Source of the DNA: a bacterium
Lineage (GTDB): Bacteria > Patescibacteriota > Minisyncoccia > UBA6257 > GWB1-50-10
Direction of reading: 5' to 3'
Assembly (NCBI GenBank): GCA_002686365.1
Contig: NZBZ01000004.1
Coordinates: 27,079 to 91,078, forward strand
DNA: 64,000 nucleotides
The notes below the pieces were generated by a model that saw only the letters and a list, made by a program, of their open reading frames with translations, did not search any database and was not told the DNA's origin. Every line of letters starts with the position of its first letter. Within the stretch, counting starts at the first letter, position 1. Of the stretch, positions 6,063 to 46,726 are shown one piece after another. The translations under genes and the position numbers were made by a program.

Positions 6063-6095
6063 TCCCACTTCGCATCTTGGAAACAGAGTATAGGG
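6063..6095. promoter_or_regulatory. Perfect 10-bp inverted repeat hairpin (CTCTGTTTCC...GGAAACAGAG) at the left edge of GC-rich islet A
   Basis: Read directly; lies immediately upstream of ORF 6106. Confidence 0.4.
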
Positions 6096-6105
6096 GAATC
6101 ATCAC

Positions 6106-6462: not shown

Positions 6463-6640
6463 AGGAGACCAAGGAGGCTCTCCTGGACTGGACTGGATTC
6501 TCTTGCCGGCTCACCGGCATCACGGAGGCGTTGCACGTATGCGCCTCCTTTTATTCGAAAATGTTTAGTTGTAGTGAGGTATTGACAATATGTATTTGGT
6601 GGGGTATTTTAATTGTTAGAAATGGAAATGGAGGTGCTTC

Positions 6641-7081: not shown

Positions 7082-7108
7082 GTATAAGCGTAATGGGTTT
7101 GGTACTAT

Positions 7109-7955: not shown

Positions 7956-8085
7956 GGTTTTTGGGAGGGGGGGGTAGTGCTTGACGCGTAGTATGATGTG
8001 TGTTACTTTTTGTATCGGCAGGGTGGGGTACATTTCGGTAGCATGAGGTATGTTGCCTTGTGCAAAACAGCGAGGATGGAACAAC

Positions 8086-8874
8086 ATGTCGTTGGTTTTT
8101 ACAGATAAGGTAGCAAGCGTTGAAGTACTGGATGCGTTCCTTGTGGACAAGGGTGTTGACCCGGGATTCATCTCGAGGATGGTGAATGCTTTGACTCCGC
8201 TCGTTCAGGAGTATGAGCCCGAGGGACGGGAAAGGGAGTGGCCGCATCTCCTCGAGGCAGGATTTATGGACCCCGAGAGCCTGGGGAGGGCGATCGTTGG
8301 GGCGACCGGAGTAGATTTGCCCATCGTCTTGGTTCCACTTGCGGACGTTGAGTGTCCGCCCAATTGGGTCGCGGAGGACTTCAGGCCTTTGATTCAGGGG
8401 ATGAGCCGGCTGGCTCTCGATGCGTCGCTCGGCGCTCCCTTGTACGGGATGCTGGGGCATGATCCAGAGGCGCAAGTGGATGGTGATCCTCACGGAATCG
8501 TTCGGATGCTCGAGACCGCGTTCGCCACACACATCTGGCATAGTGATGATACGGGACAGCCCCTGATGACGGATGGAAACGTCGTGGGCTTCCTCCGCGG
8601 CCTCATTGTCCAGAGACTCCTCGAAGACGGAAACGCAGGGGCGATAAATGAGGCTAGTGGGTCTTCACTCGCGGACAGCGCATGGGCGCTTATCCGAAAG
8701 GTCCTCATTGAGGCGGTGGAAGGAAGGTGTGAGGAGGCAGAGAAAACATGCACGCTTCTCAAGTTCTGGATGACGAACTGGGTCTGGGGAAGATCCAGCG
8801 AGGATGTGGGCATTGGTAGGGGGATGATTGTTTTCGCGGGCGAGACACATCCAGCAAGATTGGTGAGTGTATGA
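8086..8874 (+). CDS. Hypothetical protein (cassette 1 of GC-rich array)
   Basis: ATG at 8086 with GAGGA SD 7 nt upstream (ORF track begins at 8050); GC-rich, Ala/Gly/Arg-rich product. Confidence 0.45.
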   Translation: MSLVFTDKVASVEVLDAFLVDKGVDPGFISRMVNALTPLVQEYEPEGREREWPHLLEAGFMDPESLGRAIVGATGVDLPIVLVPLADVECPPNWVAEDFRPLIQGMSRLALDASLGAPLYGMLGHDPEAQVDGDPHGIVRMLETAFATHIWHSDDTGQPLMTDGNVVGFLRGLIVQRLLEDGNAGAINEASGSSLADSAWALIRKVLIEAVEGRCEEAEKTCTLLKFWMTNWVWGRSSEDVGIGRGMIVFAGETHPARLVSV

Positions 8875-8967
8875 TTGTTTTCGTGGGCTAGGCTTGGCCA
8901 GAACGAATGACGATCATCGTCATCTCACATCGAACAAAAGGAAGGCACGTATGCCTTCCTCTTTTAT

Positions 8968-9015
8968 TTCCAACAAATTGGGAGGTATCCTGTGCCGATA
9001 TATTTCACGGAATAG
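8968..9015 (+). repeat. Copy 2 of boundary repeat (encodes FQQIGRYPVPIYFTE-stop as an orphan remnant, stop 19 codons upstream)
   Basis: Aligned by eye to 7849-7895 with a few substitutions. Confidence 0.8.
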
Positions 9016-9016
9016 G

Positions 9017-9056
9017 CAATGTTTACTCACTCGGAGAGTAAACATTGGGTTTTTTG
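9017..9056 (+). terminator. Hairpin CAATGTTTACTC...GAGTAAACATTG followed by GGTTTTTTGGGG
   Basis: 12-bp inverted repeat arms plus T-tract. Confidence 0.6.
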
Positions 9057-9214
9057 GGGATTTTGTTGGTGTATTTTTGATACATTGACAAAATGTGTGA
9101 TAAATGTTACTTTCTGTTTAGATCTAACTCTAGTCTAAATGTCATTTTTCATTGCGATCTGAGCAGCTGAACACTAAGTTTCGTTCATGTCTCGTACGCA
9201 CGAGGAGTGTTACG

Positions 9215-9715
9215 ATGTTAGGCATAGGACCGACGTCTAAGATACAGGCAGAGAATCTTCGTGACTTCGTTGGCCCCCTCTGCACGCGTTTCTACGTGAA
9301 GAGGCTCAGAGCCGCTCTCGTGAAGGAGGGGAGGGTTCTACTAGATGTGGGGTTGACTGAGAGGAAGTTGGAGAGTCTTCGTCGGCAAGGTGAGAAGCGG
9401 GCTGGGATGTATCATATGTCCTGGCGCAGGAGGAACTATCTTCATCTGGTGCGGCATCATCTGGGACTGGCGCATCTCAATCTCTTGCAATGGCTTCTGG
9501 CGCAGTTCGTTACCCGCCTTCCGCTCATGGGTCGGATGTGGGGAGCTGCTTTGTCCTCGATGGCATTCGTGCTCAGAGTTCCTGTTCCGGATGATCCTCA
9601 CAGGATCATTCGCGAAGATTACGAGCGGAGCATAGCGGAAGAGGATGATGGTGGTCTCTGGGGTCTAAGCCAATCTTCTCCTTCCTGGACTGGAGGGAAT
9701 TCTCATGACAGATAA
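9215..9715 (+). CDS. Hypothetical protein (cassette 2)
   Basis: ATG with GAGGAG SD 7 nt upstream (ORF track uses an upstream TTG at 9152). Confidence 0.4.
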   Translation: MLGIGPTSKIQAENLRDFVGPLCTRFYVKRLRAALVKEGRVLLDVGLTERKLESLRRQGEKRAGMYHMSWRRRNYLHLVRHHLGLAHLNLLQWLLAQFVTRLPLMGRMWGAALSSMAFVLRVPVPDDPHRIIREDYERSIAEEDDGGLWGLSQSSPSWTGGNSHDR

Positions 9716-10109
9716 ACTTCGGTTCTCGCGGGATGTGCTGGAGTTTCGCGATCCTCGGCCGGGGGAGGTCAAGGAGTCGAAGGAGCCGTCGCCAATACAG
9801 TCGTGGCGGATGAGGATCGTCGGTGAGGGGCGGGATGGTGTTTACGACGTCTTCGTTGATTTGGATGACGTCGTTTCCATCAACTTCTCGATCGACGATG
9901 CTAGCGTGAGGATTCTCATCAATAACAAGAGGTATTCGCTTCGGGCGTATACTCGTGTTGAAGGGTCTTCTCAAATAGTGGGCCTTCGTCCCGCGATTCT
10001 TCATCGGCTGTGTCCGGGAGTTGCTCTGAACTGCCCGTGGCAGTCAGAGCATGAGTCACAGGTATCATTGGATGACCTGGGCATCATCGAGGCGCAATTG
10101 GTGCGGTAG
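9705..10109 (+). CDS. Hypothetical protein (cassette 2, overlaps the previous gene by 11 nt)
   Basis: ATG with GGAGGG SD 8 nt upstream; overlapping two-gene arrangement. Confidence 0.4.
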   Translation: MTDKLRFSRDVLEFRDPRPGEVKESKEPSPIQSWRMRIVGEGRDGVYDVFVDLDDVVSINFSIDDASVRILINNKRYSLRAYTRVEGSSQIVGLRPAILHRLCPGVALNCPWQSEHESQVSLDDLGIIEAQLVR

Positions 10110-10185
10110 GTCACAGGCAGAGAGGTTCTGCTTGCTGTCGACGTAAGTGAGGGTTTGTCCAACGGACGCCCTCTTTTTTGTTTGT

Positions 10186-10215
10186 TAATATCCTGTTCCG
10201 ATATATTTTGAGGAG
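10186..10215 (+). repeat. Degenerate copy 3 of boundary repeat (TATCCTGTTCCGATATATTTTGAGGAGTAG)
   Basis: 25/30 identity to copy 2 by eye. Confidence 0.5.
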
Positions 10216-10239
10216 TAGGTTTTTTATGTCGGTGCTTGA

Positions 10240-10261
10240 CACACTATGTATAGTGTGTCAT
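10240..10261. promoter_or_regulatory. Perfect palindrome GACACACTATGTATAGTGTGTC overlapping a TTGACA hexamer
   Basis: Read directly; operator-like. Confidence 0.4.
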
Positions 10262-10299
10262 TGTTATATATAACTATCGTTCATTTAAATTGTTATGTA

Positions 10300-10352
10300 G
10301 CAGGTTAGAGCAACCGAATTGGTCTTTTTGGGAGATTAGTTCGGTTGCTCTA
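10300..10352 (+). promoter_or_regulatory. Long hairpin (GTTAGAGCAACCGAA...TTCGGTTGCTCTAAC, 15-bp arms) with TTTTTGGGAG in the loop
   Basis: Read directly; upstream of ORF 10398. Confidence 0.45.
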
Positions 10353-10397
10353 ACTATACGGTGCCGTTTGTCACTCTTGCAGGAGGAATGAGAAGTA

Positions 10398-10637
10398 ATG
10401 GTTTCTGATAAGAAGTCTAGTGAGGTCTGGGACGATGACATGACTGAGGAGGAGCGACTCGCTTTTCTCGAGTTGCTTGAGGGGTGTTCTCTCATCAGTC
10501 GGGAAAACTATCCGGATCTTTCCGACCTTGCTCAGAGGAGTTTCGACGACCTACCTTCCGCGCTCTGTGGCTGTCTCCGTTTGGCACGAGAAGGCGATGG
10601 ATTTAAGGCCATCTCATTGATGGATGCAACTCAGTAA
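10398..10637 (+). CDS. Small acidic hypothetical protein (cassette 3)
   Basis: GGAGG SD 8 nt upstream of ATG; 79 aa. Confidence 0.35.
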   Translation: MVSDKKSSEVWDDDMTEEERLAFLELLEGCSLISRENYPDLSDLAQRSFDDLPSALCGCLRLAREGDGFKAISLMDATQ

Positions 10638-10726
10638 GTAGGTGATGCGGTGGCTGAGTTACAATAGTGCACGTTTACGGCACTAAGTGGAGCGTTCGCG
10701 AAATAAGATTCGCTGCGCTCCCTTTT

Positions 10727-10750
10727 TATTTTAGGAATAGGCAATGTTTA
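10727..10750 (+). repeat. Remnant 4 of boundary repeat (GGAATAGGCAATGTTTA shared with 9009-9025)
   Basis: 17-nt identity to the distal part of copy 2. Confidence 0.45.
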
Positions 10751-10907
10751 TATGTTGGACTTTTAAACAAAATGTAGTCCCTCGTCGTCCCCCGACGTTA
10801 CGTCGGGGGACCCGCTCGGGATCCTGAATTTTCTAGTTTCCCTTGCCAAGGCGGGGTCAAAGAAAATTCGGGGGTTTTGGGAGGTTAAAAGTAGTATAAT
10901 TATAAAT

Positions 10908-13459: not shown

Positions 13460-14125
13460 GTGTACTGGGAATCTCGCGTGTCGTCCTGTAACTGTTCCGG
13501 AAGGAGGCCTCTAGTGGCCTTTCGTCGATCGTTCAGAAGGGCAGTGGACTTCGCTGGGATCGGGCCGTTCCTCGTGTTCTGCTTTCCTTACCTCTGGACG
13601 GATGTGTTCGTCGGTGGTGGGATCGAGTCCCTGTTAGCTCCCACGCTCATTTTGGTCTCCGCGGCCATCTTGTGGCTTGGGCGTTCTGTGGCCACGCTCT
13701 TTGAGGGAGACTGTAAGACTCCTAAGAGCATGAGGCAGTGTGGACTCCTTATCGTGCTGTTGTGGATTTCCACAACGTTGAGCACGCGGCTCTTCCTCGG
13801 TCTTCAGTGGGTTCCACTCGCCTTCCTGTCTGCGCCCATACTCTGGCATCTTGGGTGGGAGACATACTGGATCCGGCTCGCGTTCTGGCGATATTCCTAT
13901 AGGATAGAGGGTGACTTTCACGGCGTTGGGCCAGAAGATCTTGCCGAGATTCTCAGGGGTGCGACTGGGCGGGTCTGGGATGTTCCGGCTGTTCCTAGTG
14001 ATCCGTATATTCTTCCCTGGGATCCTCCGTCCAATGACGCGCTTGAGGATGCTGTTCTGTGGATTGGAGGGAAGCTGGGCGACGACGACAAGGTTCGAAT
14101 CGTCCCGTACTACAGGGGGTCTTGA
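13460..14125 (+). CDS. Hypothetical polytopic membrane protein (GC-rich islet C)
   Basis: GTG start; about four TM helices; 221 aa. Confidence 0.4.
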   Translation: MYWESRVSSCNCSGRRPLVAFRRSFRRAVDFAGIGPFLVFCFPYLWTDVFVGGGIESLLAPTLILVSAAILWLGRSVATLFEGDCKTPKSMRQCGLLIVLLWISTTLSTRLFLGLQWVPLAFLSAPILWHLGWETYWIRLAFWRYSYRIEGDFHGVGPEDLAEILRGATGRVWDVPAVPSDPYILPWDPPSNDALEDAVLWIGGKLGDDDKVRIVPYYRGS

Positions 14126-14139: not shown

Positions 14140-14172
14140 CCGGATAACTGCGTGTTATCCGGCCTTTTTTAT
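14140..14172 (+). terminator. Rho-independent terminator CCGGATAAC-TGCGT-GTTATCCGG then CCTTTTTT
   Basis: 9-bp perfect stem plus T-tract immediately after ORF 13460..14125. Confidence 0.65.
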
Positions 14173-14178
14173 TTCGAT

Positions 14179-14274
14179 ATATCGAGATTCTGACATATCG
14201 AGATTTAGAGATTTTGATATATCGAGGTGTAGAGATATTGAGATATCGAGATTTTGATATGTTGAGTTTATGAG
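14179..14274. repeat. 12 tandem units of an 8-bp repeat (consensus ATATCGAG) running into the mscS start codon
   Basis: Perfect 8-bp periodicity parsed by hand; same unit recurs inside capA at 20704-20791. Confidence 0.85.
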
Positions 14275-14863
14275 GGCTTGGGGTATACTGTTTTATATGG
14301 AAAATCTAAGTTTTGAATTCCTAAAAACTACTGGATTAGAGCTTTTGAGTACTTATGGATGGAAGATATTTTGGATATTAGTACTCTTTTTTGTTGGGCG
14401 AATAGTTCTTACTCTTGTTATTCATCGGATAGTGCGATTTGCAAGTGATGGGGATAATTCTACGACAACAGCTGTAGAGAAGCGCGCAAATACGCTTGGG
14501 CATGTGCTTCGGACTGTTGGGAATGTGGTGATTTATATTATTATCCTTCTTATGATTCTTGATTTATTTGGCGTGGATATTCGGCCAGTTTTAGCTGGCG
14601 CAGGAGTTTTGGGGCTTGCAATTGGGTTTGGAGCGCAGACTTTGGTGAAAGACTTTGTTTCAGGACTTTTTATTATTTTAGAGAATCAGTATGGAGTAGG
14701 AGATAGGGTAAAGATTGGGAGTGATGAGGGGAATGTTGTGAAAGTTTCTATGCGGTCTACGGTTTTGAAGGATGATGATGGGGGAATGCATTATTTTTCT
14801 AATAGCTTGGTAAAGAATGTGGCGAATCTTTCGAGGGTGAAAAAGAAGGAGGAGGCAGCTTAA
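14270..14863 (+). CDS. mscS: Small-conductance mechanosensitive channel MscS family (short form)
   Basis: TM helices followed by the MscS beta-domain signature LAIGFGAQTLVKDFVSGLFIILENQYGVGDRVKIG. Confidence 0.8.
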   Translation: MRAWGILFYMENLSFEFLKTTGLELLSTYGWKIFWILVLFFVGRIVLTLVIHRIVRFASDGDNSTTTAVEKRANTLGHVLRTVGNVVIYIIILLMILDLFGVDIRPVLAGAGVLGLAIGFGAQTLVKDFVSGLFIILENQYGVGDRVKIGSDEGNVVKVSMRSTVLKDDDGGMHYFSNSLVKNVANLSRVKKKEEAA

Positions 14864-20138: not shown

Positions 20139-21254
20139 ATGAGATATTGGGTTTTTGTTTTTGTTCTAGCCCTGATTTCGTTTGGTTTTTCAGGGGTGCT
20201 TTATATTGTCAGAGATTTTGATTATGTAGTGCAGGGCACAGAGACTGCTCAGCTTGAGGTTGGCTTTAACAGAATGCTGGGCAAGGTCCAGCCTGAGGAT
20301 TTTGAGCTTTTATTTGTCGGAGATGTGATGCTCTCCAGAGGAGTTGGTGCGCAGATGCTTAGGCGTCAGGATTTTTATTATCCGTTTCGGCGGATTGCGC
20401 TTACTTTGCGGGGAGCGGATTTTGTATTTGCGAATCTTGAGGGTCCAATTTCAAATCGCGGGATAAATCAGGGGTCAGAGTATTCTTTTCGGGCAGACCC
20501 GAGAGTTGTGGATGGTTTGAAGTTTGCTGGATTTGATGTTTTGTCTTTGGCTAATAATCATGCTTTGGACTGGGGAAGGGAGGCGATGTTTGATACTATA
20601 GATATTTTGGAGACGAATGATGTGTATACGGCTGGTGCTGGTGAGAATTTGGATTTGGCGAATCAGCCGGCTGTTTTATGTGTGGAGGATGGGACGTCAA
20701 AATATATCGAGATATCGAGATATCGAGATTCTGAGATGTCGAGATATCGAGATGGCGAGATTTTGGGATATCGAGATGGCGAGAATTTTTGTTCTGGGAT
20801 TAGTGTTGCAGTTTTCGCATATACGAATTTGTATCCATTGGGACTTGTTGCCAAAGAAGATTATTCCGGTGTGAGTGATTTTCGGCTGGTAAGGATTTTG
20901 AAGGATATTCGCGCAATCCGCGACGAAGTCGATTTTGTTGTTGTTTCATATCATTGGGGCGAGGAATACGCAGAGGAATCAAATGAGGAGCAGAGCATGC
21001 TTGCGCATGCGATTATTGATGCTGGCGCGGATTTTATTATTGGACATCATCCGCATGTTGTGCAGGAAATTGAGAAATATAAGGATGGCTGGATTGCGTA
21101 CAGTTTAGGGAATTTTGTGTTTGATCAGGATTTTTCAGATGAGACGATGAGGGGAGCTATTCTTAGGGTTCTGGTGCGGGATGGGAGGGTTTTTAGTGTG
21201 GAAGAGCTGGGGACGAGAATAAGTTCTACATATCAGGTTTATCTTGGGGAGTAG
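20139..21254 (+). CDS. CapA/PGA_cap-family metallophosphatase-like protein with in-frame minisatellite insertion
   Basis: FVGDVMLSRGV, ANLEGPIS, SLANNHALDWG, HWGEEY, IIGHHPHVVQEIE motifs of the CapA family; internal 8-aa repeats ISRYRDSE/MSRYRDGE/ILGYRDGE. Confidence 0.75.
   Translation: MRYWVFVFVLALISFGFSGVLYIVRDFDYVVQGTETAQLEVGFNRMLGKVQPEDFELLFVGDVMLSRGVGAQMLRRQDFYYPFRRIALTLRGADFVFANLEGPISNRGINQGSEYSFRADPRVVDGLKFAGFDVLSLANNHALDWGREAMFDTIDILETNDVYTAGAGENLDLANQPAVLCVEDGTSKYIEISRYRDSEMSRYRDGEILGYRDGENFCSGISVAVFAYTNLYPLGLVAKEDYSGVSDFRLVRILKDIRAIRDEVDFVVVSYHWGEEYAEESNEEQSMLAHAIIDAGADFIIGHHPHVVQEIEKYKDGWIAYSLGNFVFDQDFSDETMRGAILRVLVRDGRVFSVEELGTRISSTYQVYLGE
20704..20791. repeat. 11 tandem units of the 8-bp ATATCGAG repeat inside the capA-like CDS
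   Basis: Parsed by hand; frame preserved, read as a 24-bp (8-aa) period. Confidence 0.85.
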
Positions 21255-25350: not shown

Positions 25351-26343
25351 ATGTTGAATTCAAAAGTAAAACTATCGCGAAAAATTTTTGGCAAGGATGT
25401 GGAGATGATTCCTACGCGAGATGGATATGGCGATGGGTTAGTTATGGCAGGAGAGAAGAATGATGATGTAGTTGTGCTTACTGCTGATCTTGCAGACTCT
25501 ACGCGGGCGCAGGCGTTTGCAGAGAAGTTTCCGGAGAGATTTTTTGAGTGCGGAGTTGCAGAGCAGGCTATGGCTACTGTTGCGGCAGGGCTTGGAACAT
25601 CCGGGAAAATTCCTTTTATTTCATCGTACGCAACTTTTTCTCCGGGGCGAAACTGGGAGCAGATTCGGACATCGATTTCTTATAATGATTCAAATGTGAA
25701 GATTGCGGGGCATCATTCGGGGATTTCTGTTGGTCCTGACGGGGTAACGCATCAGGCAGTTGAGGATATTGCAACTATGCGGGTTATGGCGAATATGACT
25801 GTTATTCAGCCATGCGATGCAATAGAGGCGCGAAAGGCAACAATACAGGCGGCAAAGGTGTGGGGGCCAATGTACTTGCGGTTTTCTCGGGAGAAGACAG
25901 CAGTTTTAACAAGTGATACTTCTCCATTTACTATTGGCAGGGCAGAGGTGTTGTGGGAAGAGAAGGGAGCAAAGGTTTTGATTATTGGGTGCGGACCCTT
26001 ACTTCACCATGCTCTTTTGGCTGCAAAAGAGCTTAAGAAGGAAAAGGTTCCTGTTGTTGTTTTGAATTCTCATACCATAAAGCCATTGGACGCAAAGACG
26101 ATTTTGCCTTTGGCAAAGAAGATTGGCGCTGTTTTAACAGTTGAGGAGCATCAGGTGCATGGCGGGCTTGGAGGAGCTGTTGCTGAACTTTTAGCACGGG
26201 AGTGTCCAGTGCCTATTGAGTTTATAGGAATGCAGGATACGTTTGCAGAGTCTGGTCCGCCTGACGAATTGTGGAACAAATATGGTATGGGGGTAGAAGA
26301 TATAAAACGCGCTGTAAATAAAGTTTTAAAAAGAAAAAGATAA
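25351..26343 (+). CDS. tkt: Transketolase, C-terminal (pyrimidine-binding) subunit
   Basis: Transketolase Pyr and C-terminal domains; lies directly downstream of the N-terminal subunit. Confidence 0.85.
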   Translation: MLNSKVKLSRKIFGKDVEMIPTRDGYGDGLVMAGEKNDDVVVLTADLADSTRAQAFAEKFPERFFECGVAEQAMATVAAGLGTSGKIPFISSYATFSPGRNWEQIRTSISYNDSNVKIAGHHSGISVGPDGVTHQAVEDIATMRVMANMTVIQPCDAIEARKATIQAAKVWGPMYLRFSREKTAVLTSDTSPFTIGRAEVLWEEKGAKVLIIGCGPLLHHALLAAKELKKEKVPVVVLNSHTIKPLDAKTILPLAKKIGAVLTVEEHQVHGGLGGAVAELLARECPVPIEFIGMQDTFAESGPPDELWNKYGMGVEDIKRAVNKVLKRKR

Positions 26344-26408
26344 ATGTTACCTCGCCAAGGCGGGGTCCTCAACTTCGTGGCTTCGCTGCGCTCAGACGAA
26401 GTTGGGAA

Positions 26409-26471
26409 ATACGGAATGGGGGCTAAGGATATAAAGGAGGCGGTGAGGAGGGTATTGAAGAGAAAGAAATA
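26409..26471 (+). repeat. GC-richer duplicate of the transketolase 3-prime end (encodes YGMGAKDIKEAVRRVLKRKK-stop)
   Basis: Compared with 26281-26343 (YGMGVEDIKRAVNKVLKRKR-stop); preceded by hairpin CAACTTCGT...ACGAAGTTG at 26371-26405. Confidence 0.6.
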
Positions 26472-26542
26472 GATTGATTTTGTTTGTATAAAAACAGGAA
26501 CCTTTTGGAGGTTCCTTTTCGTGGACGGCCGAGTTGGTTCGG

Positions 26543-27142
26543 TCAGGCGGCTATCTTAGCGATTTGGATAGCCTTTTGTCGCACCCAGCTTACTCTTGCG
26601 AGGTCTTGTATGAGCTGTATGGCCTCTTCGGTGCTTCTGGTCAGCTCTACAGCTGTGTCGTCTTGTCCCTCGACTCGTTGTCCGAGCGCCTTCTCAGCCT
26701 CTCCTCGGTTGGTATCGTTGAGGTTGCATACGATTATTCGTAGTGCAACTCGTGCTGTTCCATCGTTCATGATGAGGGCTTCGGCTGTTTCCATGTCTAC
26801 ATGAACCCAGCTGACCTTACTCAGATCCACCTGCTCTGGCTGTTCACTGGTCAACACCACCTCGTCCGGTACGTGGGTGAGATGTATCGTGAGTATGTTC
26901 CCGGCATCATCTCCCAGATCCCGAACTATCTTCAGGTTTCTTACGGTGGTTTTCGTGGTGATTTCCACCGAACCCTCTGGCATGCCGAGTAGTTCTCTTA
27001 TCTCCGACATTGCCTGCTCGGCAACTCCCATTCCTCCCATGAGCATGCGGACCCCGACTTCTTTGTCGTCTGGCATTTGCTCGATGAAGCCATCCAGCCC
27101 TGGGGAGTTAAATATGGTGGGCATTCGTTCTTCCCTTCTCAT
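26543..27142 (-). CDS. Hypothetical protein (GC-rich islet D)
   Basis: 199 aa, acidic; composition differs sharply from flanking genes. Confidence 0.4.
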   Translation of the reverse strand: MRREERMPTIFNSPGLDGFIEQMPDDKEVGVRMLMGGMGVAEQAMSEIRELLGMPEGSVEITTKTTVRNLKIVRDLGDDAGNILTIHLTHVPDEVVLTSEQPEQVDLSKVSWVHVDMETAEALIMNDGTARVALRIIVCNLNDTNRGEAEKALGQRVEGQDDTAVELTRSTEEAIQLIQDLARVSWVRQKAIQIAKIAA

Positions 27143-27299
27143 CCATGAGTCTGTGGGCTGTTAGGCCCTTTTTGGCGCGTAAGGCGCGAGCGCGGATCCG
27201 AATTTAGGGTATCTTCTTTCTGTTTATTTTGCAATATTTTGCCATTATTTTGCGTTTTGAACAGTGGTTTCCGGAGCTTTTTTGAGATATAATGGTCTT

Positions 27300-28304
27300 A
27301 TGCATGATGTGGTGACTATTGGGACTGCGACGCGGGATGTCTATATTACAAATGAGTCTTTTAAGGTTTTAAAGGACCCTAAACATCTTGAGAAGATGGG
27401 TTTTGATACTGGAGTTGCTGAATGTTTTGCGCTGGGCACGAAGATGGATATTGAGAGGCCGGCGTTTACTATTGGAGGCGGGGCGATAAATACCGCAGTT
27501 TCGTTTTCTCGGCTTGGTCTGAATGCTGCATCCTCTTTTAAGGTGGGTGATGATGAGTTTGGAGATGTGCTTGTGCGAAAAGTAAAAGATGAAAAGATTT
27601 CTCCTATTGTTTCTCGGGATAAGTCTGTTGGAACCGCATATTCTACTATTCTTTTGAATCCGAATGGAGAACGAACTGTGCTGGCTTACAGGGGGGCATC
27701 GAATACGATTCGTAAGAGAGATATTGTTTTGAAAAAGCTCAGGGCGAGATGGGCCTATATTGTTTCAGGACATTTGCCGATTGCGCTTTTGAAATCTATT
27801 GTTGAACATTTAAAGAAGAGGGGCATATGTATTGCGTTTGCTCCTTCTCAATATCATGTAGATATGGGACATAAGAAGCTTCGAGTTGTTTTGAGACATG
27901 TGGACGTTGTGCTTATGAATCGGGAAGAGGCAGCGCGCTTTACGAAAGAGGATTATAAGCGTGAGAAGTTAATTTTTAGGAAGCTTGATGAGGCGGTGGA
28001 TGGGATTGCGGTTATGACTGAGGGGTCAGGCGGTTCTCTTGTTTCAGATGGGCAGTTTATGTATCGGGCGGGAGTATTTAAAGAAAAGGAGCTTATTGAC
28101 AGAACTGGAGCCGGAGATGCGTTTGGTTCCGGTTTTGTTGCCGGAATAATGCGCGGGCATGATATACCTCATGCTTTGCGGCTCGCGAGCGCGAATGCGA
28201 CTTCTGTGGTTGAGAAGGTTGGAGCATCTACTGGGTCACTTACAGATAGAGAGTTTAAGAAGAAGCGGTGGCAGTATTTGGATTTGGATGTTGAGCCTCT
28301 TTAG
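27300..28304 (+). CDS. PfkB-family carbohydrate kinase (ribokinase-like)
   Basis: N-terminal VVTIGTATRDV and C-terminal DRTGAGDAFGSGFVAG motifs; ATG 27300 with TATAAT directly upstream (ORF track begins at GTG 27264). Confidence 0.8.
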   Translation: MHDVVTIGTATRDVYITNESFKVLKDPKHLEKMGFDTGVAECFALGTKMDIERPAFTIGGGAINTAVSFSRLGLNAASSFKVGDDEFGDVLVRKVKDEKISPIVSRDKSVGTAYSTILLNPNGERTVLAYRGASNTIRKRDIVLKKLRARWAYIVSGHLPIALLKSIVEHLKKRGICIAFAPSQYHVDMGHKKLRVVLRHVDVVLMNREEAARFTKEDYKREKLIFRKLDEAVDGIAVMTEGSGGSLVSDGQFMYRAGVFKEKELIDRTGAGDAFGSGFVAGIMRGHDIPHALRLASANATSVVEKVGASTGSLTDREFKKKRWQYLDLDVEPL

Positions 28305-30688: not shown

Positions 30689-31975
30689 ATGGCAGAAAAA
30701 AAGACAGTGCCGGCAGAGAATCAGCAGGCAGCTCCGGCTGCTCCTGTGAAGGATGCTGGAGGGCTTAGAGCTGAGATAGAGAAGCTTCTTTTAGAGAAGG
30801 AGGATATTTCTATTATTCGGCTTGTTGATGCCCTTGTTCAGTATGCGAATCTTGCGCGCGCGTCAGATATTCATATTGATCCTGATGCTAAACGTCTTCG
30901 TGTTAGGTTTCGTATTGATGGGGTGATGCATGATGAGTTTGAATTTTTGAAAGATATCCAGTCAGAGGTTATTACCCGTATTAAGGTAGTTTCCGGACTT
31001 CGTACAGATGAACATCAGGCAGCGCAGGACGGCAGGTTTCGAATGCAGGTTGAGGGAATGGGAGATATTGATGTTAGAGTTTCTATTGCTCCTACGTATT
31101 ATGGTGAGAATTGTGTGATGCGGGTTCTTGCGGGCCAGTCGGAGAGTTTTGCGGTTGAGACTTTAGGTCTTTCGCAGAGCAATTTAAAAAAAGTTCTTCA
31201 GGCAATTGGAAGGCCGTATGGGATGATTCTTGTTACTGGTCCTACTGGGTCTGGAAAGACGACTACTCTTTACTCGATTCTTCGGAGGCTGAATACTCCG
31301 GAGGTTTCTATTATTACAATTGAGGGTCCTATTGAGTATTCGATTGCAGGCATTGATCAGATTCCTGTCCATAAAGATACAAATCTTACGTTTGCCGCAG
31401 GACTTAGATTTATTTTGAGGCAGGATCCTGATGTGATTATGGTAGGGGAGATTAGGGATGAGGAGACGGCAAATATTGCGGTGAATGCCGCAATGACAGG
31501 ACATTTGCTTTTGTCTACTCTTCATACTAATGATGCGGCGACTACTCTTCCCCGGCTTTTGGATATGAAGATTGAGCCGTTTCTTATTGCTTCGACAATG
31601 AATATTGCTATAAATCAGCGTTTAGTCAGGAAGATATGCCCTGATTGCCGTAAGGAGAAGAAAATCGGCGATTTGGAGCTTTCAAATATTAAAGAGATTG
31701 TTTCTGAAGAAATTCTGCAGGGAAGGCAGTCGTTTTATGTTGGGGAGGGATGTGATTTGTGCGGAGGGTCTGGATATCGTGGGAGAATTGGAATTCATGA
31801 GGTTTTGGAGGTTAGTGAGGAGATTCGGAAGCTTATTATGCAGCGCGCTGATGCGGATCAGATAAAACAGGCGTCTGTCCGCGGAGGCATGAGGACGATA
31901 TTGGAAGATGGATTTGAGAAGGCGCTTCAGGGCATTACTACGATTGAAGAGGTTCTTAGGGTTTCACGCGAATAA
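30689..31975 (+). CDS. GspE/PilB-family type IV pilus ATPase, short paralogue (no N-terminal MshEN/GspE_N extension)
   Basis: Walker A GPTGSGKTTTLYS, Asp box, His box, C-terminal tetracysteine CPDC...CDLCGGSGYRGR; 428 aa. Confidence 0.8.
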   Translation: MAEKKTVPAENQQAAPAAPVKDAGGLRAEIEKLLLEKEDISIIRLVDALVQYANLARASDIHIDPDAKRLRVRFRIDGVMHDEFEFLKDIQSEVITRIKVVSGLRTDEHQAAQDGRFRMQVEGMGDIDVRVSIAPTYYGENCVMRVLAGQSESFAVETLGLSQSNLKKVLQAIGRPYGMILVTGPTGSGKTTTLYSILRRLNTPEVSIITIEGPIEYSIAGIDQIPVHKDTNLTFAAGLRFILRQDPDVIMVGEIRDEETANIAVNAAMTGHLLLSTLHTNDAATTLPRLLDMKIEPFLIASTMNIAINQRLVRKICPDCRKEKKIGDLELSNIKEIVSEEILQGRQSFYVGEGCDLCGGSGYRGRIGIHEVLEVSEEIRKLIMQRADADQIKQASVRGGMRTILEDGFEKALQGITTIEEVLRVSRE

Positions 31976-32337: not shown

Positions 32338-32799
32338 TCGCTCGGCGAGCTGAGAAAGCTCGTTGTCTCCAAAGAGACTGTATTCTCGCTCCCGCATGGA
32401 AAGAAGTCTGTCAAAGAAGCGGCTGGGCTTCGTATCATACTCCGCACGCTCACCAAGCTCGTCACGGATCCGCTCGCGTTCAACATCGACATTCTCAGCT
32501 GGTATTCGGCCGCGCAGCAAAAGCCGATCGAACTTCCTCTTCACGAAGCTATCGACAAACGCACTCGCGGCCAGAAGCATGAAACAGGAGGCGCCGATGT
32601 AGTCTACCCACGTATCCCCACGCGCTTGCAGTTCTTCCGGAATCGAGTAGAACCGCACCTCGTGAAACCATGCTCGAAGCCTGTCTATCCCATAGGGGAC
32701 GAGAAAGAAGATGGCGTAGATGAGGACGGGCAGACTGAGACCACACATTGTGGCTCTGATTCTCCACAATGCTTGCTTTGCACGCTCAAACTCCCCCAT
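32257..32799 (-). CDS. Hypothetical membrane protein (GC-rich islet E)
   Basis: ATG with AGGAGG SD 9 nt upstream; one TM helix; its C-terminus is read through former pilC sequence. Confidence 0.4.
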   Translation of the reverse strand: MGEFERAKQALWRIRATMCGLSLPVLIYAIFFLVPYGIDRLRAWFHEVRFYSIPEELQARGDTWVDYIGASCFMLLAASAFVDSFVKRKFDRLLLRGRIPAENVDVERERIRDELGERAEYDTKPSRFFDRLLSMREREYSLFGDNELSQLAERLGLDDIEPLPQLLLLLKLNSKMKQAF

Positions 32800-32967
32800 C
32801 TCCCGACCTCCTATTGACAAAAATCTACGTATGTGTTACAGTAGATTCTTATTGTGGTAGGATGACATCTGCTCATTAAAAACTGAGGTCTCCCTCCTTC
32901 ACAGGGAGAAGCGCCGTAGCACGTTGGTTTGGGCGCTTCTCCACTGTTTGAAGAAGGGAGATAGACC

Positions 32968-33330
32968 GTGCTTATAGAAGTGCCTGATGACTTCGGCGAA
33001 CGTCTCATCAATCTGTTGGACAAGCTCGACGCCAAATCGTATGCGCGCATAGCAACCGCTCTGCACGCACAACGTCTACTCCGCCAGTTGAAGGTCAGCG
33101 ACGCACCCGGCTCCGTTTGCCGGAAGTGTTGGAAACAGGTTGATCCCATCGTCTGCGCGTTCACAAGAGATGACCACTCTGACGAGGCGGCGGTTTCTGT
33201 GACCGATGCTGTGGAGGAGATTCTCGACTGCATAAACTTCAGAGACGCCGCTGACACTCCAATCCGCGTGGATCTGGTCATCACGCCACAGCATGAGATC
33301 GCCGAGCCACAGCCCGGTCTTACAACGTAG
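32968..33330 (+). CDS. Hypothetical protein (GC-rich islet E)
   Basis: GTG start with AAGGGAG SD. Confidence 0.35.
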   Translation: MLIEVPDDFGERLINLLDKLDAKSYARIATALHAQRLLRQLKVSDAPGSVCRKCWKQVDPIVCAFTRDDHSDEAAVSVTDAVEEILDCINFRDAADTPIRVDLVITPQHEIAEPQPGLTT

Positions 33331-33472
33331 TGTAATGCGATACGCTACCAGCGTAAACGAGCCGCCCTTTGGGTGGCTTTTCCATTCCTTCCCCACCGTC
33401 TCGTCATTACAGCCCGTCCCACTTCACGTATACTCGCCTTACCCCAAACCAGACCAACATGAGGGAAGGCAC

Positions 33473-33889
33473 ATGACTCCGAACGCCGGGCGTTCACAAC
33501 CGTCCTCAGAATCAGGCGACGTCGGATCCTCAAACGCCTTCATAGACTCTTGGTACGAGAAACTAGGGCAGCAAGTCCCCCGCCCCGTGCTGGACGACGC
33601 CCTAAACGCCATGTTTGATGGCGGCCACGAGGCCCGGATCTCCTTGTATGAGTTTCTAGATTCGGACGAATTACAGGCCAGCGAGAAAGCTGCACGCATG
33701 TGGTCGTTCTACGTCGAGTGGGCCAAAGTGCAGCGCGCTCTCAAACTCTTGCAGCTCGACAGGGCAGAAGACGCTCAGGAACTGCTAGATGATCCGCTCG
33801 TCTTTCAAGGGCGTGTGCCAGACTTACAGCTTCAGGTTGATAGCTACACCTTAGAAAGGATTTCGTTTATGGAAGTAGGTCAGTTCTAG
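33473..33889 (+). CDS. Hypothetical protein (GC-rich islet E)
   Basis: ATG with GAGGGAAGG SD; the ORF track extends upstream to 33293. Confidence 0.3.
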   Translation: MTPNAGRSQPSSESGDVGSSNAFIDSWYEKLGQQVPRPVLDDALNAMFDGGHEARISLYEFLDSDELQASEKAARMWSFYVEWAKVQRALKLLQLDRAEDAQELLDDPLVFQGRVPDLQLQVDSYTLERISFMEVGQF

Positions 33890-33958
33890 CTTTTAGCTTC
33901 ATTTCCGCCAGAGGCGGATCCGCCTTGGGCGGAAGCTATTAGCTTCATTAGCTTATAG
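33886..33958. repeat. AGCTTTTAGCTTCATT...AGCTTCATTAGCTTATAG repeat unit interrupted by two small GC hairpins (TCCGCCAGAGGCGGA, TCCGCCTTGGGCGGA)
   Basis: Member of the repeat family also at 42489, 45532, 46727, 48496, 52577 and 54403. Confidence 0.7.
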
Positions 33959-33962
33959 ATTT

Positions 33963-33977
33963 TATAATAGATGTATG
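33963..33977 (+). promoter_or_regulatory. TATAAT box 6 nt upstream of the ATG of the pilin gene (leaderless-type promoter)
   Basis: TTTTATAATAGATGTATG module conserved at 45570 and 46766. Confidence 0.5.
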
Positions 33978-34463
33978 TTTTTGTTTTTCCTAAAAGCTAA
34001 AAGCTATAAGCTAAAAGCTGAAAGGGGTTTTACTCTTTTAGAGGTGCTTGTCGTGTTAGCTATTATTGCTGTGGTTGGGGCAGTGGTTTTGATGCTGATA
34101 AATCCTTCAGCACGATTTGCAAAATCGAGAAATAATGAGCGAGCTGCGGATTTGAATGTGATTTTGAATGCAGTAAGTCAGAACATTGCTGATAACAAGG
34201 GGAGTTTTTCCTGCAGTGCTGGGTACTTGCCTTCTACTTCGACGCGGATGGCTGTTGGGTTGGGAGATTATGATATTGTTCCATGTCTTTTTCCAACATA
34301 TCTTGTTGTTGTGCCTTATGATCCGAATGGGGAGGGTGTATTTTATACAAGTACTTCGAGTTATGATTCGGGTTATGACATTTTTCAGGATTCAGTTACG
34401 GGTAGGGTTATAATAGAGGCGCCGCTTGCAGAGCTTAGTGAGACGATTTCTGCGACGAGGTAG
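33975..34463 (+). CDS. Type IV prepilin-like protein with 18-aa leader (MFLFFLKAKSYKLKAERG then FTLLEV)
   Basis: Class III signal: Gly then F-T-L-L-E-V plus hydrophobic helix; the leader is encoded by the AAAGCTATAAGCT repeat. Confidence 0.75.
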   Translation: MFLFFLKAKSYKLKAERGFTLLEVLVVLAIIAVVGAVVLMLINPSARFAKSRNNERAADLNVILNAVSQNIADNKGSFSCSAGYLPSTSTRMAVGLGDYDIVPCLFPTYLVVVPYDPNGEGVFYTSTSSYDSGYDIFQDSVTGRVIIEAPLAELSETISATR

Positions 34464-38720: not shown

Positions 38721-38823
38721 AGAAGCTGGTTTTTTTCTGCCCTGACAGATGTTTGACATATGTAGTAGTAGGTAATTAACAGAGGTGTTAATAATAGAGA
38801 ATTTTTTTAGTTGTCCCAATTTA

Positions 38824-40312
<1,489 letters not shown>

Positions 40313-40614
40313 CGACTATACAATTTGTATAGTACCTTCTGCGGAAGGTAACTCGCCTTTGCATAAAGCTTTGGCGAGAAAAACCCGCCTTTGCTCACTT
40401 TGTGAGCTATGGCGTGGTAAAGGATGTTGGCCGAGGAGTCCTATGTGTTTCGGCTTCTGTTTAAACTCTTATGTGTGCGAAAGCACACGAATTATGACCT
40501 GCCTGTTGGTAGGTAGGTTCGTGTGAATTTCGTACACACTATTTGAGTGTGGACAGATTCTTGGGACAACTAAAAAAATTCTTTACTTTATCTTTTAGAG
40601 ATTTTGTTTAACAC

Positions 40615-41898: not shown

Positions 41899-42519
41899 TT
41901 GGTCGGCGTTTTCTTTTCTAGTAAAATAGAGCTTATGACTTTATCCTTTCTAACGGGGTTTACCATTTTGTTTTTGACCGTAGGTCTGTTTTTTCAGATA
42001 TTTTTGAGAGGCAGGATTCGGTTTTTTCAGTATCTATTTTTTATAGCTCTTTTGGGAATTTTGGGGGTTTATCTGTATCTTGTGTATGGACAGTATGTGC
42101 TCTGGCGTGATTCAGGTCCTCCGTCCAGCTTTTTTGTTCCTCCGCATAGAAGCGCTTTGTATGTTTTTGGGTATCATTTTACTCGTTTTGGTCTGCAGTA
42201 TCTTATTTCTTTAGGGGTTTCGATTTTGTTTTTCTTTCTTTCTTTGCGTCTGAATCAAAGATTTGGAGAGAGATTTTTTGAAAGAGAAGAGTTGTGGCTT
42301 GGGGCATTTTCTATTTTTCTTTTAGGGAATCCAGTATGGAATTACGCATGGATTTATTACCTTTTACTTCTAGGTCTTTTGTCAGTCTTGGGGTCTCTTT
42401 TTGCGCAGTATGTTTTTCGTATTCGTGAGAGATTTCCTTTGTACTGGTTATGGATTCCGTGTGCTCTTGGAGTTATACTTATACAAAAGCTTATAGCTTA
42501 TGGCTTCATTAGCTTTTAG
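41899..42519 (+). CDS. Polytopic membrane protein, unknown function
   Basis: 5-6 TM helices; its C-terminus KLIAYGFISF is encoded by the AGCTTATAGCTTATGGCTTCATTAGCTTTTAG repeat. Confidence 0.4.
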   Translation: MVGVFFSSKIELMTLSFLTGFTILFLTVGLFFQIFLRGRIRFFQYLFFIALLGILGVYLYLVYGQYVLWRDSGPPSSFFVPPHRSALYVFGYHFTRFGLQYLISLGVSILFFFLSLRLNQRFGERFFEREELWLGAFSIFLLGNPVWNYAWIYYLLLLGLLSVLGSLFAQYVFRIRERFPLYWLWIPCALGVILIQKLIAYGFISF

Positions 42520-42588
42520 CTTTTTGTTATCTTGTCGAATTTTTTCCGTAAAGCTAACAAGCTATAAGCTAACACACTAGAAGCTAAT
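42489..42588. repeat. AGCTTATAGCTTATGGCTTCATTAGCTTTTAGC ... AAGCTAACAAGCTATAAGCTAACACACTAGAAGCTAAT repeat block
   Basis: Family member; overlaps the stop of 41899..42519 and precedes pilB. Confidence 0.7.
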
Positions 42589-42590: not shown

Positions 42591-44315
42591 ATGATTCCAT
42601 TACCTCCAGATAAAATTAAGAATCTTCTTGTTCAGGAGGGGCTTGTTGATGTTGAAAAGTTTGATGCTGCACTTGGGGAGGCGCAGCGTAAGCGTCAGGA
42701 AGTTGTTGAGGTTCTTATCTCACAGGGACTCTTGAACAAGGATTATTTTTATACTCTTCTTGCAAAGCATTTGGGAGTAGATCGGATACGGATTCGTACT
42801 TCTGATATTGATGAGAAGGTTCTTCGGATGCTTCCGGAGGATGTAGCTCGTGAGAGGCGGGCTATTGTTTTTGCCAGAGAGACAGATGGTACGTTTGATG
42901 TGGCAATGGAGAATCCTACAGATCTTGAGACTACTGATTTTTTGTCTTTGAAGCTTGATGGATCGGTGAAGGCATACTTGGCAACAGATGAGGATTTGAA
43001 TAGGGGATTTTCTTTGTATGAGGAGAAGTTAACTCAGGACTTTAAGAAAATTATTGAGGATAGTATTCGGGAGTCTTTGAGGTCAAAGGTTCAGGGTGAG
43101 GAGGATCTTGAACAGGCTGCTGAAGATCTTCCTATTGTTGCGATTGTTGATAATTTGCTTGCTTATTCGGTATCTTCTAGGGCTTCTGATATCCATGTGG
43201 AGATTTTAGATGATGCGGTTCTTGTTCGATTTCGTATTGATGGCGTTCTCCATGAGATTATTCGTATGCCTAAAGAGATTCATCCTGCAGTTATTGCCAG
43301 GATTAAGATTCTTTCCGGACTTCGGGTTGATGAACATTCGAAGCCGCAGGATGGGCGTTTTCGGCATAAGATAGGAGATGAGAATATTGATATTCGTGTT
43401 TCCGCGCTCCCAACGTTTTATGGAGAGAAGATTGTCATGCGTCTTTTGAAGGGCGCGGACCGGCCTCTTTCTTTAGCTGAACTTGGAATTGTTGATGATC
43501 GTATGCGTGATGTAATTGTAGATGCGATTTCGAAGAGCTATGGAATGTTTTTGGTGTGTGGTCCTACTGGGTCTGGAAAGACGACGACGCTTTATTCAAT
43601 TCTTAATATGTTGAATCGTCCTGAGGTGAATATTGTCACAGTTGAGGATCCAATTGAGTATGATATGCGGTTTGTGAATCAGGTTCAGGTGAATGCTGCT
43701 GCTGGTATTACGTTTGCCGGCGGTCTTCGGTCAATCTTGAGGCAGGATCCTAATATTATTATGGTTGGTGAGGTTCGGGATGCTGACACTGCAAGCATTG
43801 CTGTGCAGTCCGCGCTTACCGGGCATCTTGTTCTTTCTAGTTTGCATACGAATGATGCTCCTACTGCAATTCCACGGCTTTTTGATATGAAACTTCCTCC
43901 ATTTTTGATTGCTGCGGTTTTGAACGCGGTATTTGCTCAGCGTCTTACTCGGAGGATCCATCTTCAGTGCATAGAGTCGTATACGCCGGATTCTGCGACG
44001 CTTGATAGTATCTCTGATCAGTTAAAGGCATTGAATGTGGATCCCGGAGCAATAAAGATGCCTACTACGTTTTATCGCGGGAAGGGGTGTGATGCGTGCA
44101 GCGGCACTGGGTATTTGGGGCGAGTTGGTATTTTTGAGGTCTTGCATATTACGGGGGCGCTTCGAAAGCTTATTGTTAGTCCTCAATTTTCTCTTGACGC
44201 GCTTCGGCAGGCTGCTCGTAAGGAGGGAATGGTGACGATGTTTGAAGATGGTTTGCAGAAGGTTGAGCGTGGTGTTACTACAATTGATGAGGTGTTTAGA
44301 GTAATTCGTGAATAA
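42591..44315 (+). CDS. pilB: Type IV pilus assembly ATPase PilB (GspE family, full length)
   Basis: N-terminal GspE_N-like domain, Walker A GPTGSGKTTTLYS, Walker B/Asp box, tetracysteine CDACSGTGYLGR; 574 aa. Confidence 0.9.
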   Translation: MIPLPPDKIKNLLVQEGLVDVEKFDAALGEAQRKRQEVVEVLISQGLLNKDYFYTLLAKHLGVDRIRIRTSDIDEKVLRMLPEDVARERRAIVFARETDGTFDVAMENPTDLETTDFLSLKLDGSVKAYLATDEDLNRGFSLYEEKLTQDFKKIIEDSIRESLRSKVQGEEDLEQAAEDLPIVAIVDNLLAYSVSSRASDIHVEILDDAVLVRFRIDGVLHEIIRMPKEIHPAVIARIKILSGLRVDEHSKPQDGRFRHKIGDENIDIRVSALPTFYGEKIVMRLLKGADRPLSLAELGIVDDRMRDVIVDAISKSYGMFLVCGPTGSGKTTTLYSILNMLNRPEVNIVTVEDPIEYDMRFVNQVQVNAAAGITFAGGLRSILRQDPNIIMVGEVRDADTASIAVQSALTGHLVLSSLHTNDAPTAIPRLFDMKLPPFLIAAVLNAVFAQRLTRRIHLQCIESYTPDSATLDSISDQLKALNVDPGAIKMPTTFYRGKGCDACSGTGYLGRVGIFEVLHITGALRKLIVSPQFSLDALRQAARKEGMVTMFEDGLQKVERGVTTIDEVFRVIRE

Positions 44316-45530: not shown

Positions 45531-45531
45531 T

Positions 45532-45566
45532 CTAGCTTATAGCTTTTAGCTTCATTAGCTTTTAGG
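45532..45566. repeat. TCTAGCTTATAGCTTTTAGCTTCATTAGCTTTTAG repeat followed by the TTTTATAAT-ATG module
   Basis: Family member. Confidence 0.75.
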
Positions 45567-45581
45567 TTTTATAATAGATGT

Positions 45582-46724: not shown

Positions 46725-46726
46725 TT

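Follow-up and report, generated by a model that had tools for sequence, protein, structure and literature searches.

The stretch of DNA described here (64,000 nt, called the window; contig NZBZ01000004.1, positions 27,079 to 91,078) comes from a marine member of the Paceibacteria, which are part of the candidate phyla radiation (CPR), and carries a transketolase gene, tktC, whose 3' end is present twice. The genes of the locus are ordered rpiB, rpe, a gene for a membrane protein, tktN, tktC, the region under study, a pfkB-family kinase gene, a conserved open reading frame (ORF) without Pfam match, an aldolase gene and type IV pilus genes. tktC (25351-26343, plus strand) encodes an intact transketolase C-terminal subunit of 330 aa, which matches the Pfam models Transket_pyr (1.3e-38) and Transketolase_C (2.9e-27). 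The pfkB-family sugar kinase gene (27264-28304, plus strand; Pfam PfkB, 1e-41), with a probable start at the ATG at 27300, is the native downstream neighbour of tkt. Between the two genes lie a structured spacer, a second copy of the tktC tail and a GC-rich islet. The exact tktC protein, with the surrounding genes, is found in four public contigs, and the two shown come from Tara Oceans metagenomes. L001 and L002 have the same genes in the same order as the window, including an ORF of 42 aa and the ORF of the islet, and L170 and L171 have the same architecture, with 2 single-nucleotide polymorphisms over ~2.1 kb relative to the window. Since this architecture occurs in separate Tara Oceans metagenome records (L001, L002, L170 and L171), it is no assembly artefact.

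The last 21 codons of tktC (copy 1, YGMGVEDIKRAVNKVLKRKR, 26281-26343) are found again at 26410-26472 (copy 2, YGMGAKDIKEAVRRVLKRKK), at an offset of 129 nt from copy 1 and 66 nt past the stop, and the Lys codon before the 21-codon repeat is also common to both copies. Homology of copy 2 may begin already at 26395 (GACGAA). An earlier note on this DNA, made from its letters, had described the tail as duplicated and had named a lack of significant similarity between the copies as the result that would speak against it; the ungapped alignment gives 41/63 identical nt and 16/21 identical aa, far above 100,000 shuffles (mean 20.2, maximum 36, z = 6.0). Copy 2 is the best match of copy 1 across the window, the runner-up having 33/63, and a profile built from 164 tkt tails of Paceibacteria detects it at E = 1e-9 when the downstream DNA is translated in six frames. 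The copies match at 19/21, 16/21 and 6/21 of codon positions 1, 2 and 3, a distribution of mismatches which indicates that they diverged while both were selected as protein; they therefore represent two different functional tkt alleles and not a recent local duplication. The GC content is 0.29 in copy 1 and 0.46 in copy 2.

Which of the two tails is native was judged on 20 codons and one close relative, L083. The tktC protein of L083/L084, both from Tara Oceans samples, is the closest to that of the window (88% aa identity over the full length). In L083 tkt is followed by a short T-rich spacer and directly afterwards by pfkB, without second tail, hairpins or islet, and L085 (78% aa identity) has the same order of tkt, short spacer and pfkB and also lacks these three parts. 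L083/L084 and L085 are thus empty sites, tkt alleles without the downstream copy such as the earlier note had proposed to look for. At third codon positions, the gene body matches L083 in 206/308 cases (0.669). Copy 2 matches the L083 tail at 19/20, 18/20 and 13/20 of codon positions 1, 2 and 3, the last value being like that of the gene body, whereas copy 1 has 5/20 third-position matches with the same tail (binomial P = 1.5e-4); the 13/20 and 5/20 differ at p = 0.025 in Fisher's test. Of all tails, that of L083 is also the one closest to copy 2 in DNA sequence (83%), and for copy 1 the closest DNA sequences are found in other Paceibacteria, L027 among them, and not in the sister L083. The G+C content of third codon positions (GC3) is 0.14 in copy 1, which is the 1.5th percentile of 21-codon windows in the genome, 0.62 in copy 2 and ~0.60 in the L083 tail.

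The place where the gene departs from its relative is sharp. Codons 294-305 (MQDTFAESGPPD; 26230-26265, plus strand) are identical to L083 at 35/36 nt, and divergence begins abruptly at codon 306 (26266), the sense codons 306-329 having 6/24 third-position matches with L083 in a per-codon count. The conserved stretch is the likely left homology anchor of an exchange. As copy 2 behaves as the orthologue of the L083 tail and copy 1 does not, the GC-richer downstream copy is read as native and the AT-rich in-frame copy as the newcomer. The functional tail of the gene, codons 306-330 with the stop (26266-26343, plus strand), would then be imported, or xenologous, and the distal tail (26407-26472, plus strand; KYGMGAKDIKEAVRRVLKRKK*) would be the displaced native one, now an untranslated fossil, at a site which is empty in relatives. 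The earlier note had it the other way round, with the GC-richer copy 2 as the newcomer, and third positions, the match to L083 and the breakpoint after codon 305 reverse this direction. From its proposal that an integrating element brought its own gene end, what stands is that the incoming DNA at the tkt 3' end probably carried its own copy and that relatives with the empty site exist. In terms of coordinates, the tkt body is native up to codon 305 (26265), and the part from 26266 to ~26406 (~140 nt) is a segment of different history. This segment consists of a replacement tail with its stop (copy 1) and a module of two hairpins, behind which the original tail (from ~26407) was pushed downstream.

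Hairpins of the spacer: the 63 nt between the copies form a conserved two-hairpin module, which folds at -29.1 kcal/mol (z = -3.9). Hairpin A (26349-26366, plus strand; predicted fold) is G+C-rich and has 7 bp and the loop CAAG. Hairpin B (26366-26408, plus strand) comprises UCCUC, a stem of 11 bp (26368-26378 paired with 26396-26406) closing a conserved loop of 17 nt (GGCUUCGCUGCGCUCAG), and GGGAA; its core arms CAACTTCGT (26370-26378) and ACGAAGTTG (26396-26404) extend to the 11 pairs. A hairpin between the copies had been seen before, and hairpin A at 26349-26366 is a second one beside it. The same order of parts is found in two groundwater Paceibacteria, L131 (Hainich aquifer; tktC 69% aa identical to that of the window) and L168 (Logan SRR22388083), where the tkt stop is followed by a 7-bp G+C-rich hairpin, UCCUC, an 11-bp stem with the loop KGMUUCGCURCGYU(U)CAG, GGGA and a second tkt tail. 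Among the window, L131 and L168, the 7 pairs of hairpin A are kept with three unrelated sequences. In hairpin B, 33/33 stem cells pair across the same three loci and 4/11 pairs change on both sides, and pairing falls to 30-61% in a control with the partners slid. The covarying stem points to a structure under selection and, coming from only two independent lineages, is suggestive rather than conclusive.

A covariance model of hairpin B scores 64-69 bits on the plus strand and 17-18 bits on the minus strand. This better fit of the sense strand, together with the G-U pairs, suggests that the hairpins act as RNA in the tkt 3' untranslated region, where they would most likely be a protective or terminating RNA structure. 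Neither hairpin A nor hairpin B reads as an intrinsic terminator, as they are followed by UCCUC and GGGAAAUAC, without a U run, and a terminator scan of the region reports only the hairpins at 26496-26516 and 27155-27168. The region 26344-26410 has no match in Rfam 15 at gathering score or E <= 10, and a tRNA/tmRNA search of the spacer found none. At the ends of the spacer no terminal inverted repeats or target-site duplication are seen, and its flanks are the 63-nt diverged coding tail. Two other identities of the spacer were rejected. As a decayed tkt coding copy, it gave non-significant similarity in local and collinear alignments and against 141 tkt genes (p = 0.14-0.87), in a search which detects the fossil of L175, described below, at p < 0.005. 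An attC-like nature of hairpin B (AAC...GTT) was dropped, the motif not being kept in L131 or L168. A scan of IMG/VR for the hairpin B pattern gave two matches without the surrounding architecture, about the number estimated for chance.

The hairpins are not restricted to the tkt locus. The 13-mer CCAAGGCGGGGTC occurs exactly twice in the window, at 26355-26367 and at 10846-10858, so the repeat reported previously at 10847 is real and starts one position earlier. The match extends to 19/21 nt and makes 10838-10858 a paralogue of hairpin A. The covariance model of hairpin B, run over 1.15 Mb of Paceibacteria DNA already retrieved around tkt relatives, gives five matches, of which only two lie beyond the window spacer, L131 and L168. 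One is a second hairpin-B-like element in the window (10822-10873, plus strand), with the hairpin A copy (10841-10858) nested in its loop, and the other (L005, 109-153) lies over the last codons of a partial GIY-YIG-like ORF just upstream of tktN; the element at 10822-10873 has covariance-model matches of 22.1 bits (E = 0.01) and 38.1 bits (E = 8e-8). Two hairpin-B-like copies and two hairpin A copies are thus found within 64 kb. The spacer aligns to the intergenic region at 10.8 kb with a score of 36 (null maximum 26), and the loop motif TTCGCTGCGCTC is present at 10709-10720, in a nearby terminator, 110 nt upstream of the hairpin A copy. The intergenic region 10690-10875, which borders a GC-rich stretch of orphan genes (8000-10640), holds all three spacer motifs in rearranged form: the loop motif in the terminator (10709), a long G+C hairpin (10786-10810) and the hairpin-B-like stem with nested hairpin A. 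No displaced tkt tails were found around this second hairpin copy at 10.8 kb. On these matches, the hairpins belong to a small family of intergenic hairpins and are not unique to tkt.

Status of copy 2: public gene calls in L001 and L002 contain an ORF of 42 codons (26344-26472, plus strand), which is made of the spacer and the displaced tail in frame. The displaced tail of L131 is in the +1 frame and is shorter by 10 nt that are still present in L168. Differences between L131 and L168 at codon positions 1, 2 and 3 number 4, 4 and 6 in copy 2 and 2, 4 and 11 in copy 1. Copy 2 is regarded as not coding because of the 10-nt deletion in L131, its other frame and the even spread of differences over codon positions. 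The 42-codon ORF is most likely an accident of frame, because the L131 fossil is out of frame and no such ORF is conserved, and the 42-codon gene of the public annotation is thus most likely a fossil.

Tail replacement in other Paceibacteria was surveyed in 164 tkt loci, followed by look-ups of further relatives, for a total of ~170 loci. Among the 164 loci, duplicated tails are found only in the contigs of the window strain (L001 and L002) and in L131. The look-ups added L168 and L175 as new cases, L169, L172, L173 and L174 being empty, and the hairpin arrangement is present in 3 of the ~170 loci. The relatives of L131 (tktC proteins P0124-P0147) have two tail types, IKKY[GH]MDV.DII...RKR and IEKYGMGVKDIK..., which are interleaved on the gene-body tree; P0130 and P0135, for instance, share 94.4% identity over the body and 57% over the tail. 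The linked residue changes between the two tail classes imply a repeated recombinational swapping of the last ~25 codons. L175, the contig of P0135, carries at 1059-1145 a decayed second tkt 3' end, which begins 1 nt after the stop and has no hairpins. It covers about codons 297-322 (~MQDVF to FDI) of the other tail type (score 41, null maximum 34), and is most similar to a relative that has this tail type, as do the sister genomes. The identity between L175 and its sister L025 ends right after the PMEFVGMQDVF stretch, in which 33/33 nt are identical. In at least three lineages, the tkt tail seems to have been replaced with the old one retained, and the left boundary lies each time in the most conserved DNA of the gene.

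We infer a recombinational tail replacement that carried the hairpin module along, an explanation which we consider probable, though well short of secure. A tkt allele of another Paceibacteria lineage, in which the hairpin module already followed the stop, would have recombined into this lineage. The left crossover would have taken place in the extremely conserved DNA encoding MQDTFAESGPPD (the MQDxFxESG-coding stretch) and the right join just upstream of the KYGMG codons of the recipient. For the right join there are two possibilities, a homologous exchange with a fossil tail that the donor already had or illegitimate joining at A-rich microhomology, and by either route the tail of the recipient would have been kept instead of replaced. 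Recombination between the two tails can resolve such an arrangement at a later time, which would explain the patchy distribution and the frequent switching of tail type among close relatives.

Several observations weigh against this explanation. No donor genome with a copy-1-like tail and the hairpins was found among the loci examined, and the import is read from codon statistics on 20 codons. The near-identical copy of hairpin A elsewhere in the genome (10838-10858) makes at least part of the spacer look local and not imported. The right junction is at nearly the same place in two distant clades, GGGA/AATAC in the window and GGGAA/GAAATAT in L168 (the slash marks the junction), both A-rich and a few nt apart; random illegitimate joining does not readily account for such agreement, which is more in line with a site-specific or purely homologous process. 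For the L131 clade, either tail could be the native one: close relatives have both tail classes, and third-position matches with L062 number 7/17 in copy 1 and 9/17 in copy 2. L131 and L168, which bear the element, are paraphyletic to L062 and L172, which lack it (97.7% bootstrap). Between L131 and L168, copy 2 is 73% (37/51) and hairpin B 91% (40/44) identical, while four-fold sites are saturated (30% identical). The paraphyly and the constraint on copy 2 and hairpin B point to an old constrained arrangement with losses, and not to simple recent gains. These points leave real room for such an older arrangement or for a miniature integrative derivative mobilised in trans.

The first of these alternatives, which we regard as unlikely but as deserving serious weight, is an old tandem duplication in place of the tkt 3' end, which was maintained together with the hairpins, while relatives lost one copy and the surviving tail became that of the gene. 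The paraphyly of L131 and L168 and the conservation of their copy 2 and hairpin B despite saturated synonymous sites are what it would predict, L083 and L062 have tails similar to copy 2 of those relatives that bear the element, and the copies in the window recur with a period of exactly 129 nt (43 codons). It is opposed by the L083 sequence, whose codons 306-310 are unlike both copy 1 and the copy-2 side of the window, so that a simple deletion between the tails cannot derive it from the arrangement of the window. The spacer would also be expected to resemble tkt coding sequence, to which its similarity is not significant (p values as above), the 10-nt deletion in L131 shows that copy 2 decays and is not maintained as coding, and the hairpin arrangement is rare among the loci surveyed.

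A different idea, which we put forward tentatively and think improbable, though no more so than the old duplication, is that the unit of tail and hairpins is an undescribed miniature selfish cassette, which lacks a recombinase of its own and spreads among Paceibacteria with a replacement tail of a housekeeping gene. If this were true, conserved tkt sequence and the displaced tail would be its homology arms, and its gain and loss would drive the switching of tail types.

The locus could also be the remnant or miniature of a site-specific integrative element (a prophage, an integrative and conjugative element (ICE) or a cis-mobilizable element) at the tkt 3' end, which was mobilised in trans or reduced by deletion, with copy 1 and the hairpins as the attL side and copy 2 as attR. 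We give this a small probability, below that of the two preceding ideas. The layout is the classical one, with a gene-proximal end derived from the element and the native end displaced distally, and the empty sites in relatives and the nearly constant position of the junction in two distant clades agree with it. No recombinase is encoded in the 63-nt interval, in the islet ORF or within ~6 kb (the called genes of L001, ~6 kb on each side, were scanned for integrase and reverse transcriptase families), and an identical core is missing, the longest identical run between the copies being 8 nt in the window (GATATAAA) and 4-6 nt in L131 and L168. In both clades, deletions that occurred independently would have had to end so that the same two hairpins border copy 2, and no full-length element is present among the ~170 loci. 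The description of the locus in the earlier note as a classic integrating element is not supported, for the same reasons: only 63 nt separate the copies, there is no integrase nearby and no shared run above 8 nt could serve as an att core.

The islet was part of that description. A GC-rich islet with one ORF does exist beside tkt, with a GC content of 0.50-0.565 over ~26500-27200, compared with ~0.43 in the flanks. Its extent is 26524-27214, where the left edge comes from the GC profile, is approximate and is not placeable by alignment, and the right edge (27214/27215) is set by the alignment of 27215-27299 of the window to the region upstream of pfkB in L083 (score 45, null maximum 29). A bidirectional terminator-like hairpin (AGGAACC...GGTTCCT, 26496-26516), found by the terminator scan, lies between the fossil tail and the islet ORF; its homology to the L083 terminator is not demonstrable. 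The islet ORF (26543-27142, minus strand) is an orphan of 199 aa, or 193 aa from the second ATG. Its open frame is longer than chance (p = 0.011) and has a coding-like composition, with G at 0.41 of first positions. At third positions it has C 0.30 and T 0.10, compared with 0.06 and 0.36 in tkt, and it is also unlike the A-rich copy 1. On these grounds it looks coding but foreign in codon usage. The ORF has no match in Pfam, PHROGs or PADLOC, and its only real match in whole-database searches (5.8 billion proteins; 1.84 billion cluster representatives) is its own strain variant. Two weak matches (E = 6e-4 and 8e-4) in repetitive proteins were judged spurious, and the AlphaFold model, with a predicted local distance difference test score (pLDDT) of 46.8, is unusable.

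The model in which this islet is an integrating element inserted after tkt, carrying copy 2 as its own gene end, has in its favour that copy 2 adjoins the islet and that both are more G+C-rich than copy 1, and it is very improbable: copy 2 is the orthologue of the sister tail and its high GC3 is native, as in the L083 tail, the codon usage of the islet is C-ending versus G-ending in copy 2, L131 and L168 carry the duplication without the islet, and no protein family, integrases included, is matched by the islet ORF. Lying beyond the native tail, with a composition unlike both the host and copy 1, the islet is instead a second, unrelated insertion between the old tail and pfkB, and it should not be read as an integrative element. 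Other stretches of 0.50-0.57 GC in this ~0.43 GC genome are found at 6000-7100, 8000-10640, 13500-14000, 32500-33900 and 52500-53500, and three ORFs in 9152-10637 have no Pfam match. The genome seems to be peppered with GC-rich islets of orphan genes like the one beside tkt. In the first of these stretches, the ORF 6641-7081 has an internal tandem duplication of ~207-210 nt, 72-86% identical.

A function of copy 2, as an alternative C-terminus (by read-through, bypassing or RNA processing), as a separate peptide or, in a related form, as part of a diversity-generating retroelement, is equally remote: copy 2 of the window is intact and in frame with tkt, the 42-codon ORF opens with an ATG that adjoins the stop, and diversity-generating retroelements abound in CPR bacteria, but read-through and an alternative C-terminus were rejected on the frame and the deletion in L131, together with the even spread of substitutions, and a retroelement on mismatches which are not adenine-specific (5/22 at copy 2 adenines, 12/22 at copy 1 adenines) and on the lack of any RVT family, and so of a reverse transcriptase, within the ~6 kb scanned.

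Further features of the window and of related loci were noted. Small GIY-YIG nuclease genes are found in or beside the tkt operon of four Paceibacteria (L005, 1011-1331; L121, 1918-2229; L017, 34-318; L075, 2-307). The gene of L005 lies between tktN and tktC, and a separate partial GIY-YIG-like ORF, read by eye and not detected by phmmer, is present at 1-167 of the same locus, its end being overlapped by the hairpin-B-like element at 109-153. None of these genes is downstream of tktC, and they are only a hint of a homing-type activity around tkt. In the window, arrays with a period of 8 nt (GAGATATC-like units, ~10 and 7 registers) occupy the intergenic regions 14153-14300 and 20678-20801, 6.5 kb apart. 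A dispersed intergenic repeat made up of AGCTWWWAGCT units, such as TAGCTTATAGCTTTTAGCTTCATTAGCTTTTAG, is found in either orientation at no fewer than seven sites in 21 kb (33934-34033, 42479-42572, 45525-45609, 46721-46833, 48487-48595, 52569-52609 and 54387-54437) and may be a promoter- or terminator-associated motif or a family like the repetitive extragenic palindromic (REP) sequences. The 16S rRNA gene (38823-40312) is bracketed by a 25-nt inverted repeat, 96% complementary (38795-38819 and 40561-40585), which is presumably a processing stem, and no 23S or tRNA gene follows the 16S gene within the window. Two paralogous genes for T2SSE-type ATPases (30689-31975 and ~43000-44300), 12.3 kb apart, have a DNA identity of 71-78% over several hundred bases.

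The tkt locus keeps a legible history of recombination within an essential gene of an uncultured bacterium with a reduced genome, in which the fossil shows what was replaced, in which direction and, roughly, when. The C-termini of transketolases appear to have been exchanged repeatedly among Paceibacteria. The two-hairpin module, with its conserved loop and covarying stem, is a candidate new structured element which can be searched for across the candidate phyla radiation.

Comparison with known systems: ICESt1/ICESt3 and their cis-mobilizable derivatives at fda, and SCCmec at rlmH, are integrative elements that enter a protein-coding gene at its 3' end and restore this end with a copy of their own. 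The tkt locus resembles them in that a foreign gene-proximal copy keeps the gene intact, the native end is displaced as a diverged direct repeat and empty sites exist. It differs in having 63 nt of structured non-coding DNA between the repeats, without integrase, cargo or identical core, and in the position of the adjacent islet, which is not enclosed by the two repeats. Homology-facilitated illegitimate recombination occurs in natural transformation of Acinetobacter and Streptococcus. This process is discussed in PMC6382021. The tkt locus has in common with it one junction in near-identity (35/36 nt) followed by foreign sequence, and the window encodes type IV pilus and competence-like T2SSE and T2SSF proteins. 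Unlike that process, recipient DNA was retained at tkt, which gave a duplication and not a deletion, and the same structured end is present in two distant clades, which is not expected of random DNA ends.

Diversity-generating retroelements are also similar in part, with two diverged copies of a 3' end close together, a hairpin after the coding copy and a phylum rich in such elements. The tkt case departs from them in that its mismatches are not specific to adenines, no reverse transcriptase gene lies close by, the copy without coding function is orthologous to the tail of relatives, and a housekeeping enzyme is the target. REP and bacterial interspersed mosaic element (BIME)-like elements, miniature inverted-repeat transposable elements (MITEs) and Rickettsia palindromic elements share with the tkt module the G+C-clamped hairpins right after stops, and related copies of the module lie at 10822-10873 and at L005 109-153. 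The module differs from these repeats in its very low copy number (5 matches in 1.15 Mb) and in having no terminal inverted repeats or target-site duplication, and those families are not characterised by a tie to a replaced coding tail. The tkt arrangement is a member of none of the compared families.

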